NCBI GenBank assembly: GCA_964016885.1
Contig: OZ024756.1
Location: 19,716,001-19,780,000, forward strand
Source of the DNA: Eledone cirrhosa
Taxonomy: Eukaryota
Reading direction: 5' to 3'
Length of the DNA: 64,000 nucleotides
Both the position numbers and the translations under genes were made by a program. Below the pieces are notes generated by a model. That model was not told where the DNA came from. It was given only the letters and a program-made list of their open reading frames with translations, and did not search any database. Positions 21,215 through 64,000 of this stretch are shown here, one piece after another (within the stretch, counting starts at the first letter, position 1; each line of letters begins with the position of its first letter).

Positions 21215-24200
21215 GTAAGTATAGCAACTGACTTCTCATTTCCATCATAGTCTTTCTGAGTCCAATGAAATAATTGTTTCTACATTAGGCACAAGGCCAG
21301 CAATTATCCCAATGTTAATATAGTGAGAGGAATGTCTCCTGGTAAAACACTCACATGATATTGATATACAGTGAAATTCTGTTATAACGAAATTCATGGG
21401 GTATAAAACAAAATTCGTTGTAATGAAAAATTCTTTATAATGAGATCGACTGGAATAAATCAAGCGTTTGTTTATTAACTCGAGGATTGAAAAAAATTTT
21501 GTTATGCTGAAAAATTCGTTAATTTTACCTGTAGTGGGGAGGCACTCCAAAGCACATAACGACTTTTCTGAAGTGGATGCAGATGGTGAGAATCAACTTC
21601 TGGAACTTGTGGATCAGTTCAATGATATGTAATGTGAAGATCTCCTCACTTCATGATCTTCCACTCTTCAATCTTCCCTGCTTCTCCCGTGAGAATATTA
21701 TAGCTACCCTCCTTATAACTTTGAGCAATTGCTAATGACAGAAGATCCTTTGGGTCACTTTCAAATATGTGTTTCTACTGGGATAGGGGTTATACAGCTA
21801 CCCTCCCAATAACTTTGAGCAATTGCTAATGAAAGATGATCCTTTGGGTCACCTTCAAATATGTGTTTCTACTGGGATAGGGGTTATACAGCTACCCTCC
21901 CAATAACTTTGAGCAATTGCTAATGAAAGAAAGCTCTTTGGGTCACCTTCAAATATGTGTTTCTACGGGAATAGGGGTTATACAGCTACCCTCCCAATAA
22001 CTTGGAGCAATTGTTAATGAAAGATGATCCTTTGGGTCACCTTCAAATATGTGTTTCTACTGGAATAGGGGTTATACAGCTACCCTCCCAATAACTTGGA
22101 GCAATTGTTAATGAAAGATGATCCTTTGGGTCACTTTCAAATATGAGTTTCTATTGATATTTCTGTTATCATTATTTTGAATTCTGTAAACTTCAATTTC
22201 TTCTGCTCTTTCAGCTCAGACTTTACACATCAACAAAGTACCAAGCTCCCAGTGAACATGACTTAACATTGATCTGGGACTATCACAATTTTTCATTAAC
22301 AGAATCTATCGATGAGTAAGTATCGCTAGAATTTCAGCAACAATTATCAATTTAAGTCTTAGGGTGTTCACCCAAATGAAAACTTGAATCTGATTTAAAG
22401 TTTTTTTTTTCTTTTAAATGTTTAGAAAACTCTGTCTTTGTTAATATAAATAGCCCTCTATTAACATATTTTGTTTTTACACTATACACCATATTTAGAG
22501 AGTTACAGTAATACAAACAGTCCTCTATCAAAATTCACAGTTTTGTACACTTTACAGCAGACATGTCAAACATGCAGCCCTTTACAAGTGCAACTGTGAC
22601 CCGCACAAAGGTTTTTACAGCGCGAGCATGTTTTATCTTCATAATATAAAATTAAAAAAATTAGTTGTAATGTGCGCAATTAGTTGTCATGTGTGGCCCT
22701 CAGACAACACATGTGACCCATGTGGCCCTCAGACAACACATATGTGACCCATGTGGCCCTCAGACAACACATATGTGACCCATGTGGCCCTCAGACAACA
22801 CATATGTGACCCATGTGGCCCTCAGACAACACATATGTGACCCATGTGGCCCTCAGACAACACATATGTGACCCATGTGGCCCTCAGACAACACATATGT
22901 GACTCATGTGGCCCTCAGACAACACATATGTGACCCATGTGGCCCTCAGACAACACATATGTGACCCATGTGGCCCTCAGACAACACATATGTGACCCAT
23001 GTGGCCCTCAGACAACACATATGTGACTCATGTGGCCCTCGAGGGACCCTCAGTTTGACATGCCTGCTTTACAGAATATATAAAAGGCTACAATTATACA
23101 AATAGCAGTAGAATAATGGTAAATAATCATCATCGTCATTGACATCTACATCATGCTCATCATCTACATCAGGGGTCGGCAACTTCTTTGCCTCCATGGG
23201 CTGGATCGAGTATTAATGATGGATAGCGGGCCGGACGAAGGCTATAAAAGAATAATTATGGAAAATTACACAAGCTAAAATTTAATCATGAGTGTTGACT
23301 ATACTTAAAAGTAATTTGTATTAACCACAGATGAATGTAGTAATGTGACAAATTTTTAATTGTGTTATTGCTGTCAAAGCGTTCACATCTGGTTGGTGGT
23401 GGACATTATGTAGAGTGAATCAGAAGATTTGTGGAAGAATGTAACAGCAGGCCTTTTATTGTATTCGAAAGTCTCATCTCTCATCATCATCATTTTACGT
23501 CCACTTTTCCCTGCTTGCAAGGGTGGGACGGGAACTGATTCTAGCTTGATTTCTACAGCTGGATGCCCTTCCTAACACCAACCTCATTTACAGTGAGTGC
23601 CGGGTGTTTTTATGCTGTGGCACCTCCACGACCACTTTGCAGTGGAGTGATATGGACCCCAGTCCCTATCATCTCATTTCTACAGCTGAGTAAACTGGAG
23701 CAATGTGAAATAAAGTGTCTTGCTCAAGGAAACAACACATCACCGGGTCTGAGAATTGAGCTCACAACCTTTTGATTGCAAGGCCAATGCTCTAACCACT
23801 AAGCCATGTGCCTCTCATATTACAATAAATTTGAATTTTAAATAAACAACTCATTGGGCATCAGTTCTCGCGGGCCGGATTCAGCCCGCGGGCCATAGGT
23901 TGCCGACCTCTGATCTACGTCATGATGATGATGATGATCATCATCATCATCACTATCCTCTACATCATCACCATCACCATCTACATCATCATCTGCTTCA
24001 TCTAAATCATCATCATCTATATCATCATGATATTCATCATCATTATCAACATCTTCATATATATCATCACCGCCATCACCATCATGATATTCATCATCAT
24101 CTACATAACCATCATCATCATCATCTACATCAAACCTTGTAAGTGGGATTGGGTAGATGGAAACTGTCATATTAATATTTATATTTTTAATTAAAAATAT

Positions 24201-48204: not shown

Positions 48205-49402
48205 TTGACACAGTGTATCTTAGACTACATTATCCAATGTGCTCTTCCTTATTGAATTCTCAAATTTTCTGATCTCCATTTCTTTCTTTGCAGGCCTTCA
48301 ACACTTTCATAGATGATGTGTTTGCCTTTATCATTACAATGCCAACAGCTCATAGACTTGCATGTTTCAGAGATGATCTTGTATTTTTGATTTATTTATA
48401 CCAAAGATGGTGAGTTCTCCTCTACATCTTATTTTTCAATGTTTGCTAATATCTCTTTATGCACATTTCCTCTGTTGATGCACTCAATATGTATGGCAGA
48501 AGTGTATATATTGTTATATAACATAATTAGGAAATTCCAGATTTGATTCCACAAATCCTGTTACCATGACAAAAGCACTAAGTCCATTCAGTATGCTGAT
48601 TTAAAGTCAAAATAAAATACCTGTATGGTTGTCATAATGGTGACACGAGAAAAAGCGCCCAGTCCACCCTGTAAAGTGATTGTACTGGTGACACGAGAAA
48701 AAGCACCCAGTCCACCCTGTAAAGTGATTGTACTGGTGACACGAGAAAAAGCACCCAGTCCACCCTGTAAAGTGGTTATTTTGGTGCCAAGATAAAAAGC
48801 ACCTAGTCCACACTCTAATGTGGTTGGCATTAGGAAGGGCATCCAGCTCTAGAAACCAAGCCAAAATACAGATCCATATGAACAAGATATGGTCACCTGA
48901 CCTGAATTGTCTCATAATGTGACAACCTGTCTAACAGATGCAAGCATGGAAAATAGACGTTAAACGATGATGATGATGATGACGATGATCCACCTCTCAC
49001 TTTTGGTCCACTGTGCTTATTCTCCATGATGTAATACTCCTTTTGAGTCCTTGAGTTTGAAACCCTGGCCCAAAGTGACATTATTGTTGTGACTGACAAA
49101 TTTGTATTAGAAATCATAGATCTTAAATGGGATACAGAAATACGCCATAGTTTATTCTTTTACCTGTTTCAGCCATCTGGCTGAGGCCATGCTGGGGTAC
49201 CACCCTTGGCAGTTATATATGACAACAACATTTACCAAAACATGATTTTACTACAATGATTTTATTTTGCAGGTTATACCCTGTTGATAAGACGAGGGTC
49301 AATGAATACGGCATGTCTTATGAAGAAGACAGTACCAAGACTAATTCAAAGAAGAAAGTGGAAAACAGTACCAAGACTAATTCAAAGAAGAAAGAGGAAT
49401 AA
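21056..49402 (+). CDS. CLPTM1L: CLPTM1-like protein (ER lipid scramblase CLPTM1L), complete spliced CDS, 17 coding exons, 542 aa
   Basis: join(21056-21214,22215-22315,24225-24408,26508-26635,28215-28287,28823-28940,29956-30050,32078-32162,33021-33124,33898-33963,35440-35490,38100-38182,41463-41497,44695-44750,46150-46194,48294-48409,49273-49402) = 1629 nt. All introns are GT-AG with consistent phases. Family motifs: [95 protein letters not shown]. Confidence 0.96.
21699..22155. repeat. 94-bp tandem repeat, about 5 copies
   Basis: tacagctaccctcccaataac... recurs at 21699, 21793, 21887, 21981 and 22075. Confidence 0.92.
22215..22315 (+). CDS. CLPTM1L: CLPTM1L coding exon 2
   Basis: tttcag|[33 protein letters not shown]|gtaag, phase 0 to 2. 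Confidence 0.88.
22558..23066. mobile_element. hAT MITE carrying an internal 31-bp minisatellite (about 11 copies)
   Basis: TIR CAGACATGTCAAAC/GTTTGACATGCCTG, perfect TSD CTTTACAG, unit atgtggccctcagacaacacatatgtgaccc. Confidence 0.88.
23170..23912. mobile_element. hAT MITE with nested CORE-type SINE
   Basis: TIR CAGGGGTCGGCAAC/GTTGCCGACCTCTG, TSD ATCTACAT/ATCTACGT. SINE at about 23483-23815 (-). Confidence 0.85.
24225..24408 (+). CDS. CLPTM1L: CLPTM1L coding exon 3
   Basis: [23 protein letters not shown]...VNLLTDKTP|gtaagt. Confidence 0.93.
24765..24980 (+). mobile_element. RTE-like LINE 3' end (copies also at about 34495-34710 and 1-30)
   Basis: Shared sequence caagcaagatggttggataacatc...ggatccagctggatca...ctcaggaataagtgg with a GAA-rich tail. 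Confidence 0.6.
25384..26397 (-). mobile_element. Non-autonomous Helitron-like element
   Basis: Minus strand starts atctctatatatataaaa followed by (CTGT)n and ends with the hairpin cccaggcaatgccagg + CTAGT. Confidence 0.65.
26508..26635 (+). CDS. CLPTM1L: CLPTM1L coding exon 4
   Basis: [42 protein letters not shown]|gtaag. Confidence 0.92.
28215..28287 (+). CDS. CLPTM1L: CLPTM1L coding exon 5
   Basis: [24 protein letters not shown]|gtgag. Confidence 0.92.
28823..28940 (+). CDS. CLPTM1L: CLPTM1L coding exon 6
   Basis: [39 protein letters not shown]|gtaaa. Confidence 0.93.
29165..29580. mobile_element. Tc1/mariner remnant
   Basis: Terminus tacttttcaaatagatctcgta (TACGAG-type TIR) with a decayed interior. 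Related mariner-like ends at about 1455-1780 and 45189-45250. Confidence 0.5.
29681..29716 (+). ncRNA. Minimal type-I hammerhead ribozyme motif (CLPTM1L intron 6, sense)
   Basis: TCTT-CTGATGA-a AGAC tagt GTCT-GAAA-CG-TT-AAGA. The ACGT palindrome replaces stem III, as in dimerising minimal hammerheads. Confidence 0.72.
29956..30050 (+). CDS. CLPTM1L: CLPTM1L coding exon 7
   Basis: [32 protein letters not shown]|gtaag. Confidence 0.95.
30478..31041 (+). mobile_element. CR1-clade LINE 3' fragment with (ATT)n tail
   Basis: [57 protein letters not shown], then a 3'UTR and ATT repeats. Confidence 0.88.
31594..31662 (-). ncRNA. Type-I hammerhead ribozyme motif, partly decayed (CLPTM1L intron 7, antisense)
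   Basis: Minus strand: gcaatAAACAc-CTGATGA-[gtcag-gatt/aatc-tgac]-GAAA-t gtat a-TA-aTGTTTgc. Confidence 0.65.
32078..32162 (+). CDS. CLPTM1L: CLPTM1L coding exon 8
   Basis: [28 protein letters not shown]|gtgag. Confidence 0.95.
32445..32970. repeat. About 60-bp tandem repeat (about 8 copies) derived from the SINE central domain
   Basis: ccatgctctcagtacactatgtgaagtggttggtgttaggaaggacatccagctgtagaaa. Confidence 0.9.
33021..33124 (+). CDS. CLPTM1L: CLPTM1L coding exon 9
   Basis: [34 protein letters not shown]|gtaag. Confidence 0.95.
33898..33963 (+). CDS. CLPTM1L: CLPTM1L coding exon 10
   Basis: [22 protein letters not shown]|gtaag. Confidence 0.95.
34005..34230. repeat. Diverged 54-bp tandem repeat, about 4 copies
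   Basis: ggtgtgtattggtctgtaaagattatgcagtgaagtttgtcttggcaaataaat. Confidence 0.75.
35440..35490 (+). CDS. CLPTM1L: CLPTM1L coding exon 11
   Basis: [17 protein letters not shown]|gtgag. Confidence 0.93.
35793..36024. mobile_element. piggyBac-like MITE (about 230 bp; copies at 3498-3726, 33241-33452, 46319-46546, 58835-59035)
   Basis: TTAA-CCCTTTAGCATTTA ... TAAATGCTAAAGGG-TTAA termini with a conserved interior. Confidence 0.75.
36295..36606. repeat. 90-bp tandem repeat (about 3.5 copies) inside a CORE-type SINE
   Basis: Perfect copies of gtgacatcactggtgccaagctgtattggccattgcctttcccttggacatcatatatagtgtg... Confidence 0.92.
37291..38026. repeat. 22-bp minisatellite, about 33 copies
   Basis: ttatttattaaatcagaaac(c/a)a. 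Confidence 0.95.
38100..38182 (+). CDS. CLPTM1L: CLPTM1L coding exon 12
   Basis: [27 protein letters not shown]|gtgag. Confidence 0.95.
38210..38600. repeat. CAT/CGC-derived cryptic trinucleotide repeat
   Basis: (catcattgtcgccgt)-type units. Confidence 0.9.
38751..41006. repeat. 2.25-kb compound (CA)n/(GA) microsatellite with higher-order units
   Basis: Almost exclusively A/C/G, with units such as acacacagag. Confidence 0.97.
41463..41497 (+). CDS. CLPTM1L: CLPTM1L coding exon 13 (35 nt)
   Basis: [12 protein letters not shown]|gtaag, phase 2 to 1. Confidence 0.93.
41608..42088 (+). mobile_element. RTE-clade LINE 3' fragment with (GAT)n tail
   Basis: [22 protein letters not shown]-like C-terminus. 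Homologous copy at 8130-8403. Confidence 0.8.
43220..43855. repeat. (CAT)n then (GGT/GAT)n low-complexity tracts
   Basis: Direct reading. Confidence 0.9.
44119..44312 (+). mobile_element. tRNA-derived Meta-domain-type SINE (representative copy)
   Basis: A/B-box head (TGGCAGTATCGGTAG...GTTCAAATCC) plus GCCTTTCATCCTTACGGGGTCGATAAAATAAAGTACCAG. Other copies (approximate): 817-996+, 11515-11903- (tandem pair), 28359-28545+, 31042-31230+, 36960-37300+ (x2), 41147-41335-, 42883-43072-, 43866-44075+, 45555-45935+ (x2), 58120-58333-, 63914-64000+. Confidence 0.85.
44325..44673 (+). mobile_element. tRNA-derived CORE-type SINE with RTE-derived (GAT)n tail (representative copy)
   Basis: TGGCTTAGTGGTTAG..GTTCAATTC head, TTGAGCAAGACACTTT core, AGGAAGGGCATCCAGCTGTAGAAA domain, RTE 3' tail. 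Near-identical copies at 23483-23815-, 27650-27987-, 56336-56675+, 63200-63543-. Confidence 0.88.
44695..44750 (+). CDS. CLPTM1L: CLPTM1L coding exon 14
   Basis: [19 protein letters not shown]|gtaga. Confidence 0.95.
46150..46194 (+). CDS. CLPTM1L: CLPTM1L coding exon 15
   Basis: [15 protein letters not shown]|gtaag. Confidence 0.95.
46788..47946. repeat. 36-bp minisatellite, about 32 copies with interleaved variants
   Basis: tctatgatcaaag(g/a)tattcca(gaca/gctt/tctt)tgacca(g/a)caaa. Confidence 0.96.
48018..48109 (+). ncRNA. Type-I hammerhead ribozyme motif with long, decayed stem II (CLPTM1L intron 15, sense)
   Basis: GCATAT-CTGAGGA-(61 nt stem II region)-GAAA-CATATG (palindrome)-TA-ATATGT. 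Confidence 0.68.
48294..48409 (+). CDS. CLPTM1L: CLPTM1L coding exon 16
   Basis: [38 protein letters not shown]|gtgag. Confidence 0.96.
49273..49402 (+). CDS. CLPTM1L: CLPTM1L coding exon 17 (terminal)
   Basis: ttgcag|(W)[45 protein letters not shown], ending in a KKxx ER-retrieval-type motif. Confidence 0.95.
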
Positions 49403-53584: not shown

Positions 53585-55798
53585 GAGAGCTGGACCAACC
53601 CCAGGATGTTACTGTGTGGTACATATAAATATACCTTACCGCTCCTTACGGCCGCCTTGGACTTTGCTGAAACACTCACACCCATCACTGACCAGGAAAG
53701 AAATATCATCCTCCACGCCAGGAAGACAGTCCTACTTTTCGACAACTCCAAGTAGATAAAGAGAGCTCCTGACTACCCCTTCAACGTCAGTATGGGCACG
53801 ACGGATTCGGCCGAGGTCACAGATCTTATAGGATTATTCCTACTATTTAAACTCACCGAAATGTTTCCTGCATTCGGCGGTGGATTGTACCGGGATGATG
53901 GGCTCCTCACCCTCAAAAAGTACAACCCCAGTAGTACAGACCGAGTCCGTAAACAACTAATCAACTTCTTCCGGGACTGGGGATTTAAAATCACCCTACA
54001 AACGTCCCTAACCCGAGTCAATTTCATGGACGTTACCCTTAACCTCGAAAATGATCTGTACTACCCATACAGAAAACCAAACGACAACCTGCACTACATC
54101 CACCGCTGCTCTAACCATCCTAGAAACATCACCAATAACCTGGTTAAAAACATCTCCCTCCGCATTTCTCGTTTGTTCACTAATGAACAGATATTCGACG
54201 AACACACGCCTCATTACAACCAGGCCCTCAAGTGGAGTGGCTTCCGAGAGGAAATATCCTTTTATCCAGCTTACCTTAGCGGAACCAGCAAACGACAATG
54301 CCGCTCACGCAACGTAACGTGGTTCAATCCTCCTCGTGATGCCAAGGTGGCAACACCTATCGGGAAAATCTTCTTTAGACTCCTCAAAAAAAACTTCCCA
54401 CTACAACACCGCTACCACAACATAATCAATAAAAACACCATCAAACTCTCCTACAGCACCACACCTAACTTCGCACAAAACATCGTCTCCTCAAACAACA
54501 AAAAACTTAAACCCTATGGAAGAAATAACCTAGACATCAGTGGAGAGCCGACCAGGAGGTGTAACTGTCCTGATAGATCTACGTGCCCCCTCAACAACAA
54601 ATGCCGAGAACGTAACATGATCTACAAGTGCAACGTGAGGACGGACACCCCCAACAAAGCTTATATAGGATTAACCGTGTGTGACTTCAAGACCCGGCTC
54701 TACCAACACTGACATACTTTCCGAAATCCGGTCCGGCGACATGCCACTACACTTTTGGGCCACATCTAGGACCTCCAAGATAATAATATAACCTACAATC
54801 TCACTTGGAGCTTACTGTCCAGAGCTAACTCTTACACGGGAGGACGCCGTCCGTGTAACTTATGCTCAGAGGAAACATTACAAATGCTGTTTTCGAAGGA
54901 CCAACTCCTAAACAAGTAAGACGAAGTGGTAACCGTATGCAAACACAGATTGCGTAGGACTTACCTCGCCCTCAAACCATAACAACCCGGGTGGTTAGAC
55001 AAGGGCTGATACCCCCTCCCCCCTCAACTTGCCAAATAAGTTAGGGGAAACCCCAGCCTACATAGGTAGATGTATCTCTTTTCTTTTCCTCAGTCTTCTT
55101 CCCCTTGTCTCATCCTATCACTTCCTTCCACCCCCTATTTTCTTCCTCGTCTGCTTTTCCCCTTTCGCCTACCCCGATGCAGCCCATTGGGCCTCTGTAG
55201 CATTTGTTGCCCCACCCCTGTAATTTTAAGATAGAATTGACCAAATACGTTTTACTAACTACTTATAGCAGACGTGTTAAACCCCTTTTATTTTTGTATC
55301 AGTTTTGGTACTACTTAATTTCTACAAGTTTTTTCTATTCTCAACTTATTAACCTGTAATTGTAAGATGGCATTGTGATTTTTTTTTATTCATTTCTCAC
55401 TATTTAATTTTATCTACTTTTTTATTTCTTTCTAGTATCTTTTATTGTCTCTTACTCTCATTCAATTTACCTATTCTATAACCTCCCTCCTCCACTTCAT
55501 ACACTATCCTTAGAATCTGCTGTATACATATCACTTTCAATGCTTGAAGGCTCCACTCACTCCCCTATTGTTCTACAGGCAAGTTCAGCCACCCCTACCT
55601 CCCACCAAATGCCATGATAGACTTATTTGTGTTTACAACAAATTTTAACCTATCCTCTTGACAACTACAATCTTCCCATATAAGGAAGTATCCCCTTGAA
55701 AAGTTCGGCTACTTATTCACCAGGCTAAAAATTCTAATTTAGTCCAGAAATAGCCATCGAAACGGCTTGAGCTCTGCCGTCGGGGTCATACTTTTTCC

Positions 55799-56208: not shown

Positions 56209-56749
56209 ATTTTGAACAGGTGAATATTTAAATCGTATTTTAATTTATTTAAAAGATTGTTTAATGTTTGCTTGTTCCGCTCATCTCAATATATATATAT
56301 ATATGTATATATATATACATAAATATATATATACATGGAGGCATATGGCTTAGTGGTTAGAGCATTGGCCTTGCAATCGAAAGGTTGTGAGTTCAATTCT
56401 CGGACCGGGTGATGTGTTGTTTCCTTGAGCAAGAGACTTTATTTCACATTGTTCCAGTTTACTCAGCTGTAGAAATGAGATGAGATAGACTGGGGTCCAT
56501 ATCATTCCACTGCAAAGTGGTCGTGGAGGTGCCACGGCAAAAAAGCACCCAGCACTCACTGTAAATGAGGTTGGTGTTAGGAAGGGCATCCAGCTGTAGA
56601 AATCAAGCCAGAATCAGTTCCCGCCCCACCCTTGCAAGCAGGGAAAAGCGGACGTAAAATGATGATGATGATGATATATATGCTAGCATGGAAACATTGA
56701 CATAAAATGATGATGATGATGGTGATGATGATATGTATGGTCAAGGTGG

Positions 56750-57038
56750 AGTATCAGCAGATTTCTCATTAGTTCAGCATAGATATTCTCCTTTTCGCTA
56801 ATATTTAATATTATATTGGCATCTGCTGGGCAGCTAACTTCCATTACTGTGCATGCCTTCTTCCCTCTCCCATATCATTATATCTGGTCTGTTATGCTTG
56901 CATTTCATTGGAGCTTTGACTGGAACATTCCACCAGTACTCTTTTGTATTATGTATGTGTATGTCTTCCACATTGCTGTAACTTTTAATGTGTTTATTGT
57001 CTGGGATATCTTTTCTATGGATTGCATTGTACAGTGTT
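56750..57038 (-). mobile_element. Second, diverged fragment of the same R4/Dong family (endonuclease region)
   Basis: Nucleotide near-identity to about 60620-60905 (gcatagatattctccttttc...ggattgcattgtacagtgttt). Confidence 0.85.
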
Positions 57039-57274
57039 TATGTATGTATATATATGTGTGTGTGTGTGTGTCATCATCATCATTGTTTAATGTCTATTTT
57101 CCATGCCAAGCAGGGAAAAGCGGACCTAAAATGATGATGATGATGATGATGACGATGATGATGACGACGACGACGACGATGACGATGACGATGACGATGA
57201 TGATGATTGTGTGTGTATATAACATATATATATATATTATATATATTTTTTTTGTATATACATATATATATATA

Positions 57275-57797: not shown

Positions 57798-58070
57798 TTA
57801 AACTTTAGTGTTTGTTGTGACATAGTTTGGCAGAGTGGTAACATTCTGATGACCGTCACTCTCAAAAGCCTCATTCTTCACTCCACCTTTTTCATCTTCT
57901 CCCAACTGTTCTCTACTTTTAAATTCATGGATGTTTTCAACAGTTGTCACAAGACTTCCACTGCTTTCGGAGCCTTTGTTGTCATTGGTTTCCTTCCTGT
58001 ATCTGCCAGTGCGGTTCTCTGACTGAGATGGTCCCCAGTTCGGAAGGGGCTTTAAACACTTCACCATAAC
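57798..58070 (-). CDS. SLC6 terminal exon (cytoplasmic C-tail, ends -TKV)
   Basis: ttcag|VMVKCLKPLPNWGPSQSENRTGRY...TTNTKV-stop. P..WGP...RTGRY is typical of the glycine/proline-transporter subgroup of SLC6, and the C-terminal T-x-V fits a class I PDZ ligand. Confidence 0.88.
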   Translation of the reverse strand, partial: VMVKCLKPLPNWGPSQSENRTGRYRKETNDNKGSESSGSLVTTVENIHEFKSREQLGEDEKGGVKNEAFESDGHQNVTTLPNYVTTNTKV

Positions 58071-60420: not shown

Positions 60421-61792
60421 TTATTACACACAGAATTTTTGAAATGTTTTACGTATTTTTACTGTTCCATTAATGGATTGTACTTGTAATTTCCTAACTA
60501 GTCGTGTTCTTTCTGTGAAGCCCAGCTTCTCAAGATTTGTACTGAGGCAGTTACTAACATATTCCAGTGCCCCAATAATCACAGACATAAATCTGAAGGT
60601 GGAGTCAAGGTGGAGTATCTGCAGATTTCTGATTATTTCTGCATAGATATTCTCCTTTTCACTAATCTTTAATATTATATTGGCATCTGCTGGGCAGCTA
60701 ACCTCCTCTATTGTGCATGCCTTCTTTTCCCTGTCCCATATCATTATATCTGGTCTGTTATGCTTGCATTTTATTGGGGTTTTGACTGGAACATTCCACC
60801 AGTACTCTTTCATATTATGTATGTGTATGTCTTCCACATTGCTGTAACTTTTAATGTGTTTATTGTCTGGGATATCTTTTCTATGGATTGCATTGTACAG
60901 TGTTTTGGCTACTAGATCATGTCTCATAGGTAGATAGTACCGTGATGACATCTTTGGACAGCTGTTTATTATATGGGTGACATCTTCAATGGTAATTCTG
61001 CAGAGTCTGCACTTGTTGTCACATCTAGCTGTTTTGCCTACATTACTATCTCTTTTGTGAATCAGGTTTTTTGTGTTGATTTCCTGTTCTTGGATTGTAA
61101 AAGCATATCCTTCAAAGTGGGAGCCAATATAGTGTTTGTTGGTCCAAGATAGAATACTTTGCTTATCAACATTACTCTTACTCTGGAGCTTCTTGTCAAT
61201 ACATCTATACATGAGTTTTTGCTGATAAGCATGCAGTTTTTCATTCATGGATTCTCTGTGGTATTGCTGGGCAATTTCCTTGAGTGTAAGTTTTTGATTA
61301 TCAAACAGGGTGTATCTTTCAAGGAGTTCCTTTCCAACTTTCATGATCTTATCTGTCTCATGCAGATAGACTTGCTCAATAGATGGGGGCTCCTATGCTT
61401 GGAGGTTTGTGAATGTTGTCGGAGGGATATGATATGACACTCAAATGCTGTCTGGCCTGATGTTAGGCCTCTGCCTCCCTGCTTATGTTTCAAGTAGAGG
61501 CGGTCTATGTCACTGTTGATATGGAAATTCCAGGTGTTGTTTAGGATTTTTTGGGGTTTCAACATCAATTGATCTGATTTTGTCTATCATCCAATTGAGT
61601 ATTCCAATCCTTTGAGAATGTTGTAACCAGGTCAATATTTTTCTTCATCCCATTGATGTTCTTGGTATAGAGTTTCAGGTCATCCATGAAGAAATTATGG
61701 GTTAAGTTAGTATTTCTGTCCTCCTGTGAGCCAATGATGTATCCTTCACATTTCATGAACAGAAAGGACAAGAGGTTTAATGACAAAGCCAT
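60421..61792 (-). mobile_element. R4/Dong-type non-LTR retrotransposon fragment (RT + CCHC knuckle + restriction-like endonuclease), frameshifted, in the last SLC6 intron
   Basis: HNFFMDDLKLY, RLYL..GGRGL, CRLC..EDVTHIINSCP, RHD, NRPDIMIWD..EVSCP, EKENIY. Confidence 0.9.
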
Positions 61793-61799
61793 GTGCTTT

Positions 61800-62200
61800 C
61801 ACTAAAATATGACAACTTACCTGATAACCTCCCCTTTGACAGTGCATCACTATAAAATATGTCAACTCACCTGATAACCTCCTTTTGACAGTGTCACTAT
61901 AAAATATGTCAACTCACCTGATAACTTCCTTTTGACAGTGTGTCACAATAAAATATGTCAACTCACCTGATAACCTCCTTTTGACAGTCTGTGACAATAA
62001 AATGTCAACTCACCTGATAACCTCCTTTTGACAGTGTGTGACAATAAAATGTCAACTCACCTGATAACCTCCTTTTGACAGTGTGTCACTATAAAATATG
62101 TCAACTCACCTGATAACCTCCTTTTGACAGTGTGTCACAATAAAATGTCAACTCAACTCACCTGATAACTTCCGTTTCGACAGAGTTTCACTATAAAGTA
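61800..62200 (-). repeat. 47-52-bp tandem repeat made of the SLC6 exon 3' end plus its 5' splice site (7 extra copies)
   Basis: The unit cacctgataacctccttttgacagtgtgtcactataaaatatgtcaact aligns to the exon end cacctgataacttccgtttcgacagagtttcactataaagta. Confidence 0.9.
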
Positions 62201-62323
62201 GATTGGAATCATCCCTAGAACGACAATCACTATGAGCCATCCAAGAACCAGTGCCCATCGGGGATAGATATAGGAGTGGTAGGTGATTGACTTGTACTGT
62301 ATGGCTTTTGATATGATAACCAC
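62162..62323 (-). CDS. SLC6 (Na+/Cl- neurotransmitter/amino-acid symporter) penultimate exon, TM11-TM12 region
   Basis: cccag|VVIISKAIQYKSITYHSYIYPRWALVLGWLIVIVVLGMIPIYFIVKLCRNGSYQ|gtgagt, 162 nt, phase 0. YxYPxWA..LGW..IP is the SLC6 TM12 signature. Confidence 0.9.
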
Positions 62324-63848: not shown

Positions 63849-64000
63849 ATATTTTGATTATGTGAATGTCTTCATTTATTATTCAGAATAATAATAAATG
63901 AAGACATTCACATCTTTGCCTTTCATCCTTACGGGGCCGATAAAATAAAGTACCAGTAATGCACTGGGGTAATTGGTGGCCTTGTGCCTAAAGTAGAAAC

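Follow-up and report, generated by a model that had tools for sequence, protein, structure and literature searches.

A minisatellite spanning an exon-intron boundary presents eight consensus 5' splice sites in an octopod SLC6 gene

The window analysed here, a stretch of 64,000 nucleotides of octopod DNA, contains on its minus strand the 3' part of a gene for a GlyT-like transporter of the SLC6 family. Two exons of this gene, both with open reading frames, lie in the window, and those further 5' fall beyond base 64000. The penultimate coding exon (62162..62323, minus strand), identified through Pfam, GlyT1 and homologue matches, encodes the end of TM11, TM12 and the juxtamembrane region. Read from 62323 to 62162, it comprises 162 nt and 54 residues, is in phase 0 on both sides and follows an acceptor with 19 pyrimidines in 19 positions. 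Its product matches positions 475-523 of the 524 positions of the Pfam SNF profile (PF00209, E=1.3e-9) with a score of 37.8 bits, above the cut-off of 27, and its best counterpart among the PDB sequences (54 at E<=1) is human GlyT1, residues 533-581 (E=1.4e-7). The last coding exon (57798..58070, minus strand), defined by alignment with two Octopus proteins, opens at the acceptor at 58070 and supplies 90 codons for a C-terminal tail that ends in TKV and holds a P-x-x-x-WGP...ENRTG segment common to scallop.

A scan of a representative protein library produced 135 matches. The top one (P0001), a repetitive protein unrelated to SLC6, was dropped, and the best real ones, at 66-67% identity, were the GlyT1-like proteins of Octopus sinensis (P0002) and O. 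vulgaris (P0003). Together with the O. bimaculoides homologue (P0136), these GlyT1/GlyT2-like proteins have the same exon end and junction position as the window gene, and the C-terminal tails of P0002 and P0003 resemble its tail, including the class-I PDZ-type end. Over both exons, 87 of 144 residues aligned with P0002/P0003 are identical (~60%), and the last exon, aligned from 58070 to 57801, is identical to either protein at 51 of 90 residues. In P0002 and P0003, this exon end is likewise followed by the aligned tail, which confirms the joining of the real donor of the TM12 exon (donor 1) to the acceptor at 58070. Within the TM12 exon, the window gene has 35-36 of 54 residues in common with P0002, P0003 and P0136, which share 47-52 of 54 with one another; this low identity to mutually similar homologues suggests either a diverged paralogue or an origin in a more distant octopod. 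Neither its own protein nor a closer orthologue was among the five matches that a protein homologue search retained from 155 candidates, and a word-indexed homologue search returned none of five candidates for the TM12 exon and none of 33 for the last exon.

The intron between the two exons harbours a broken, 5'-truncated non-LTR retrotransposon (60427..61759, minus strand), which is oriented in sense to the SLC6 gene and starts about 60 nt beyond the most distal donor described below. It is recognisable by a reverse-transcriptase motif, a zinc finger and an endonuclease-like part; its Pfam matches (zf-RVT, E=0.033; RVT_1, E=0.002) both remain under their cut-offs, and a sub-threshold Tox-HDC match on the reverse-transcriptase fragment was taken as chance. 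A second fragment of the same element (302 nt, 94% identical) is located at 56740-57039 on the minus strand, beyond the 3' end of the SLC6 gene. Further away, positions 53756-54709 of the plus strand form an open stretch of 318 codons with a reverse-transcriptase-like YRDD motif that gave no match in a Pfam search and that we take to resemble a Penelope-type element. Tail-to-tail with the SLC6 gene lies a gene of the CLPTM1 family (28215-49400, plus strand), of which 13 exons were mapped, four of them exceeding the cut-off for Pfam PF05602; human CLPTM1L, we presume, likewise adjoins SLC6 genes. In the last coding exon of this gene (49325-49399, plus strand), an in-frame tandem duplication of 36 bp doubles a lysine-rich C-terminal segment of 12 residues.

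The boundary between the TM12 exon and its intron is occupied by a minisatellite (61803..62200, minus strand) with units of 47-52 nt, delimited by TRF and unit alignment; the corresponding TRF entry, one of 116 rows for the window, spans 61803-62197 with a period of 47, 8.1 copies and 90% matches. Its units, within the range of about 10-100 bp expected of donor-spanning minisatellites, are arranged head to tail, and the first straddles the real exon-intron boundary. Eight minus-strand sites of the form TATCAG/GT[G/A]AGT are present at spacings of 47-52 nt, with their last exonic bases at 62162, 62110, 62061, 62014, 61967, 61918, 61871 and 61821. Donor 1 (CAG/GTGAGT, 62156..62164), whose junction is that of the homologues, is the only one from which the last exon is reached in frame and is followed by a local duplication of 5 nt and an in-frame TGA as the third intron codon. 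Units 2-7 (61865..62112) repeat CAG/GTGAGT as pseudo-donors from 62110 to 61871, and unit 8 (61810..61859) carries CAG/GTAAGT at 61821, so that CAG/GTRAGT is intact in all seven intronic units. Every unit also contains a TTGAC motif that is branch-like by the branch-point consensus. Beyond unit 8, a minus-strand match to exon sequence ~36 nt 5' of donor 1 (61795..61811) may represent either a partial ninth unit or the microhomology that seeded the first duplication. The copy number is that of one haplotype, and no further copies of the repeat unit or the SLC6 exon were found elsewhere in the window. Base composition predicts 0.002 nine-mers of the CAG/GTRAGT type in 350 nt, which shows that the donor cluster is real and born of duplication. 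The original prediction of eight minus-strand donors, the most distal one reading GTAAGT, is thus confirmed by the coordinates, TRF and this expectation, and their origin by tandem amplification of the exon end with its donor is supported by the unit structure. Its description of ~38 nt of exon end copied seven more times holds for the number of copies, but the units prove to combine 36-39 nt of exon end with 11-16 nt of intron start, and the copies are inexact.

The divergence of the units gives some indication of how the array was built. Over 45-50 aligned positions, the intronic copies differ from the exon copy at 6-12. Units 2-7 show 0-3 substitutions from each other, 6-10 differences from the exon copy and 4-8 from unit 8, and between the exon copy and unit 8 there are 12 differences in 50 positions, two of them resulting from the duplication of 5 nt behind donor 1. 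All of units 2-7 are also short of the exon by at least one base, with a base missing from the ninth of the 13 duplicated codons, and unit 8 is the only intronic unit with a complete in-frame exon end of 39 nt. The near-identity of units 2-7 points to recent or homogenised copies and would fit recent turnover. For the duplicated codons, unit 8 has YFIVMHCQRGGYQ, the exon YFIVKLCRNGSYQ, and both P0002 and P0136 YFVVKHCQSGGYQ; unit 8 agrees with the latter two at 10 of 13 codons and the real exon at 8, and the respective figures for P0003 are 9 and 7. At three codons, the intronic majority retains the H, Q and G of the homologues, with unit 6 carrying the exon's base at the third, whereas the coding exon has changed. 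These three replacements thus postdate the amplification, making the intronic units a preserved record of the earlier sequence of the exon. Hand parsimony assigns six exonic changes to the coding lineage versus two to unit 8, a difference that is not significant (P=0.29). Units 2-7 and the exon copy share four positions against unit 8, of which the homologues polarise only one. We infer as the simplest history a first duplication that left unit 8 behind and a second that gave rise to the progenitor of the inner units. The read-through in P0136 described below was considered as a sign that unit 8 is the original copy; this was rejected, as an intron start of the unit-2 type fits equally well.

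Reading on past donor 1 gives GTG AGT TGA. Since the third intron codon is a stop, all seven alternative donors lead to the same end, ...SYQVS-stop, with the loss of 90 residues. The reading frame hence bears out the claim that any downstream donor yields a tail-less product, and the homologues lend weight to the view of TKV as a PDZ-type end: the C-termini are S-K-F in two Octopus proteins and T-K-F in scallop, and P0002, P0003 and P0137 carry a class-I PDZ-type end, the motif to which we assign the TKV of the window gene and the ends of its homologues. A stop codon is expected to trigger nonsense-mediated decay (NMD) if it lies more than 50-55 nt 5' of the last junction, a rule that may not hold in molluscs. 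From the SYQVS stop to the next junction, the distance is 43 nt for donor 2 and 92-332 nt for donors 3-8. The donor 2 product would therefore escape junction-dependent NMD, and the idea that downstream donor use creates an NMD target finds no support at the donor that is expected to leak, only donors 3-8 exceeding the limit. According to the accessible part of the study, the serotonin transporter SERT is trapped within the endoplasmic reticulum (ER) and inactive once it lacks at least 17 C-terminal residues (PMC2998113); by analogy, one would sooner expect the protein ending in SYQVS to be waste than to serve as an isoform. The database model of P0136 ends five residues past the same donor and omits the last exon, an ending by intron read-through that may reflect intronic polyadenylation or an artefact of assembly or annotation.

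The donors themselves bear no detectable mark of preservation. Among units 2-8, one of 14 minimal changes falls into the donor nine-mer, and so few would be expected with P=0.25, a test of low power given only 14 changes; the chance that none of them hits the GT is P=0.56, and in ungapped columns the nine-mer takes one of eight substitutions (P=0.50). Donor strength was judged by a U1 duplex model and by the CV scale of PMC1557585, which in its available portion places CAG/gtgagt at CV 100. In the duplex model, donors 1-7 have an energy of -12.2 kcal/mol and donor 8 one of -12.1. With equal energies and a CV of 100, donor 1 is already maximal, and the designation of the distal site as 'perfect' gains no support. 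Strong donors are also the local norm, since 11 of the 13 real donors in the window read GTRAG. The predicted fold of the array RNA is not unusual (z=+1.26 relative to shuffled sequences, 85 of 100 of which fold as well), and the mean unpaired fraction at 37 C is 0.23 for donor 1 and 0.24-0.69 for the others. RNA structure as a mask for donors or a guide for editing was discarded on account of this z value and because the pairing of donor 1 is on a par with that of the other sites.

Tandem amplification is frequent in this part of the genome, as evident from four larger minisatellites (36 bp x 32.7 at 46764-47940, 22 bp x 33.5 at 37290-38027, 31 bp x 11.3 at 22692-23040 and 61 bp x 8.5 at 32460-32971) and an AC-rich tract of 2.2 kb (38751-41007). 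Complex tandem arrays, 14 after merging, make up 7.8% of the window. Downstream copies within 400 nt number at least two for 5.7% and at least seven for 2.3% of the 49,744 complex 20-mers that lie outside the array. Intron-side copies occur at two of the 13 mapped donors (12 of the CLPTM1-family gene and one of the SLC6 gene), compared with 0.74 expected (P=0.17); this census is partial, as CLPTM1-family exons upstream of 28215 were searched for in the window and not found. The second case is an exon end with its donor at 28288 of the CLPTM1-family gene (28270-28365, plus strand), followed by two intronic copies in which the donor has decayed to GTGTGT and GTTGGC. This decayed example, 34 kb away, suggests that donor-spanning repeats are common in this genome.

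Collectively, we consider it probable that the array is a near-neutral, ordinary minisatellite, in which donor 1 wins by virtue of its position and any leak is small, mostly through donor 2, with its products being discarded. Microhomology between exon and intron start may have seeded a single tandem duplication, whose inner unit later expanded by slippage or unequal crossing-over, as other minisatellites in this repeat-rich window would have done. If the human cases are a guide, donor 1 would be selected almost always, through exon definition and 5'-to-3' scanning, and a leak through donor 2 of at most a few percent would produce either a degraded mRNA or a transporter without its tail, probably misfolded and retained in the ER. 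The array would then be tolerated and close to neutral rather than regulatory. The precedent behind this reading is mammalian throughout and is applied to the octopod array by analogy. Further points count against it: all seven pseudo-donors are intact, unlike the copies in the CLPTM1-family gene, and in human genes pseudo-sites are used constitutively, as cited for 6-16 and CBS, or compete once they read CAG/gtgagt, as in F7 against a weak first site. As an ordinary repeat, the array matters little, adding one more donor-spanning minisatellite. Its modest value lies in offering a natural test of the notion that the upstream donor wins, in a mollusc and with all sites consensus-perfect, and in preserving an earlier sequence of the exon. 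For the fields of splicing and of cephalopod neurobiology, it would gain significance only with downstream use that is substantial and dependent on repeat number.

Such use is what the main alternative proposes, namely that the downstream donors capture a substantial share of transcripts and that repeat number, by setting the unproductive or tail-less fraction, determines transporter dose. We regard this as unlikely, and quite unlikely in its stronger form, a selected, length-variable dose control in which eight donors compete across the 4-kb intron and divert mRNA according to repeat number. The idea draws on eight intact and equally strong donors, on a stop that is the same whichever downstream donor is used, and on the P0136 model, which, stopping just past the same donor, predicts a tail-less form in O. 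bimaculoides; this ending, however, arises by read-through, for which an array is not needed, and could be an artefact of annotation or assembly. The competition by CAG/gtgagt sites in F7 minigenes (PMC1557585) and the use of pseudo-sites in 6-16 and CBS (cited therein) are also in its favour, within what the accessible text describes. On the other hand, pseudo-donor use in F7 and ABCA7 was independent of copy number in the available parts of PMC1557585 and PMC5954066. The tuning of isoform ratios that the original prediction envisaged is unsupported: repeat number did not alter donor choice in F7 or single-unit retention in ABCA7, and a test of low power gave no sign of selection on the donors (one of 14 changes, P=0.25). 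Moreover, donor 2 falls within the 50-55-nt rule, and the background rate of duplication accounts for the occurrence of the array. Searches of the open-licence literature found no donor array outside humans, octopus included; taken with the lack of a length effect in the precedents, as far as their available text goes, a dose control of this kind would be the first such rheostat found. In that event, the intronic units would form a fossil record, showing that three juxtamembrane residues changed faster in the coding copy than in its non-coding duplicates.

The remaining explanations fare worse. U1 suppresses premature cleavage and polyadenylation, a process known as telescripting, and the extra donors could in principle bind U1 without being spliced, silencing poly(A) signals in the sense-strand retrotransposon downstream. 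The element begins ~60 nt beyond the array, an ATTAAA lies at 61781, 40 nt past the last donor, and AATAAA occurs within the element at 60970, 60864 and 60775. The 4.09-kb intron holds eight AATAAA signals, though, and this density (1.96/kb) is no higher than that of the minus strand of the window (2.25/kb). With no signal of donor preservation (14 changes, low power) and nothing relevant from a literature search, we judge this role to be very unlikely. We consider it highly improbable that a paralogous SLC6 copy, rather than this exon, gave rise to the intronic units through unequal crossing-over or gene conversion, or that the assembly has joined two paralogues. The closer match of unit 8 to the homologues (10 of 13 codons, 9 for P0003) than of the exon (8, or 7) would agree with it, as would the contrast between the 35-36 of 54 residues that the window gene shares with homologues and the 47-52 that these share mutually. 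Against it, at four positions units 2-7 agree with the exon copy to the exclusion of unit 8, a search of the window for a second SLC6 exon found none, and the six changes in the coding copy do not significantly exceed the two in unit 8 (P=0.29). Nor does the sequence downstream of the array switch to the homologue type, the last exon there being just as diverged (51 of 90 identical). Finally, recursive (ratchet) splicing or intron creation, with the CAG of each unit acting as an acceptor that regenerates a donor, is barely credible and was rejected, since the AG/GT and TTGAC of every unit and a report, in its accessible part, that tandem repeats at exon-intron boundaries can create introns (PMC2812944) are countered by only 7-8 pyrimidines in the 19 positions before each CAG and one or two earlier AGs, as opposed to 15 and 19 of 19 at real acceptors.

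The layout of a minisatellite that spans a donor is already known from human F7, 6-16/IFI6, CBS, LMNB2, PDGF and ABCA7, in which the additional donors are mostly idle, and the available portions of two papers note that repeats at exon boundaries can affect human splicing (PMC2812944, PMC10078293). The closest parallel to the octopod array, in the part of PMC1557585 that is accessible, is the 37-bp VNTR of F7 intron 7, which likewise has a boundary-spanning first unit, a donor reiterated 5-9 times and intact pseudo-sites. There, splicing uses no donor but the most upstream one, pseudo-sites of CV 91 or below do not compete, and the addition or deletion of repeats leaves donor choice unaltered. 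Once converted to CAG/gtgagt (CV 100), the pseudo-sites took 70-90% from the first site (PMC1557585). This competition involved a weak first site, whereas the octopod first site equals its copies; the F7 unit contributes 4 exonic nt and a donor of CV 74, as opposed to 36-39 exonic nt and consensus-perfect donors here. For F7, both polymorphism and splicing have been measured, whereas the octopod array is known from its sequence alone. The repeats in 6-16/IFI6, CBS, LMNB2 and PDGF, as cited in the available text of PMC1557585, share this architecture with 10-25 reiterated donors, of which none or the nearest two are used: two pseudo-sites are used constitutively in 6-16 (IFI6) and in CBS intron 13, and none in LMNB2 and PDGF. 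These are human genes with transcript data, a difference from the octopod case, which was read from genomic DNA only. ABCA7 intron 18 resembles the octopod array in that its 25-bp VNTR starts at the donor and the donor of the next unit leads to a premature stop, but its repeat lacks exon sequence. In the accessible part of PMC5954066, retention of a single unit is minor, apparently about 2%, cycloheximide-sensitive and independent of VNTR size. The length effect described there consists in skipping of the next exon rather than in pseudo-donor use, whereas the next exon of the octopod gene is the terminal one.
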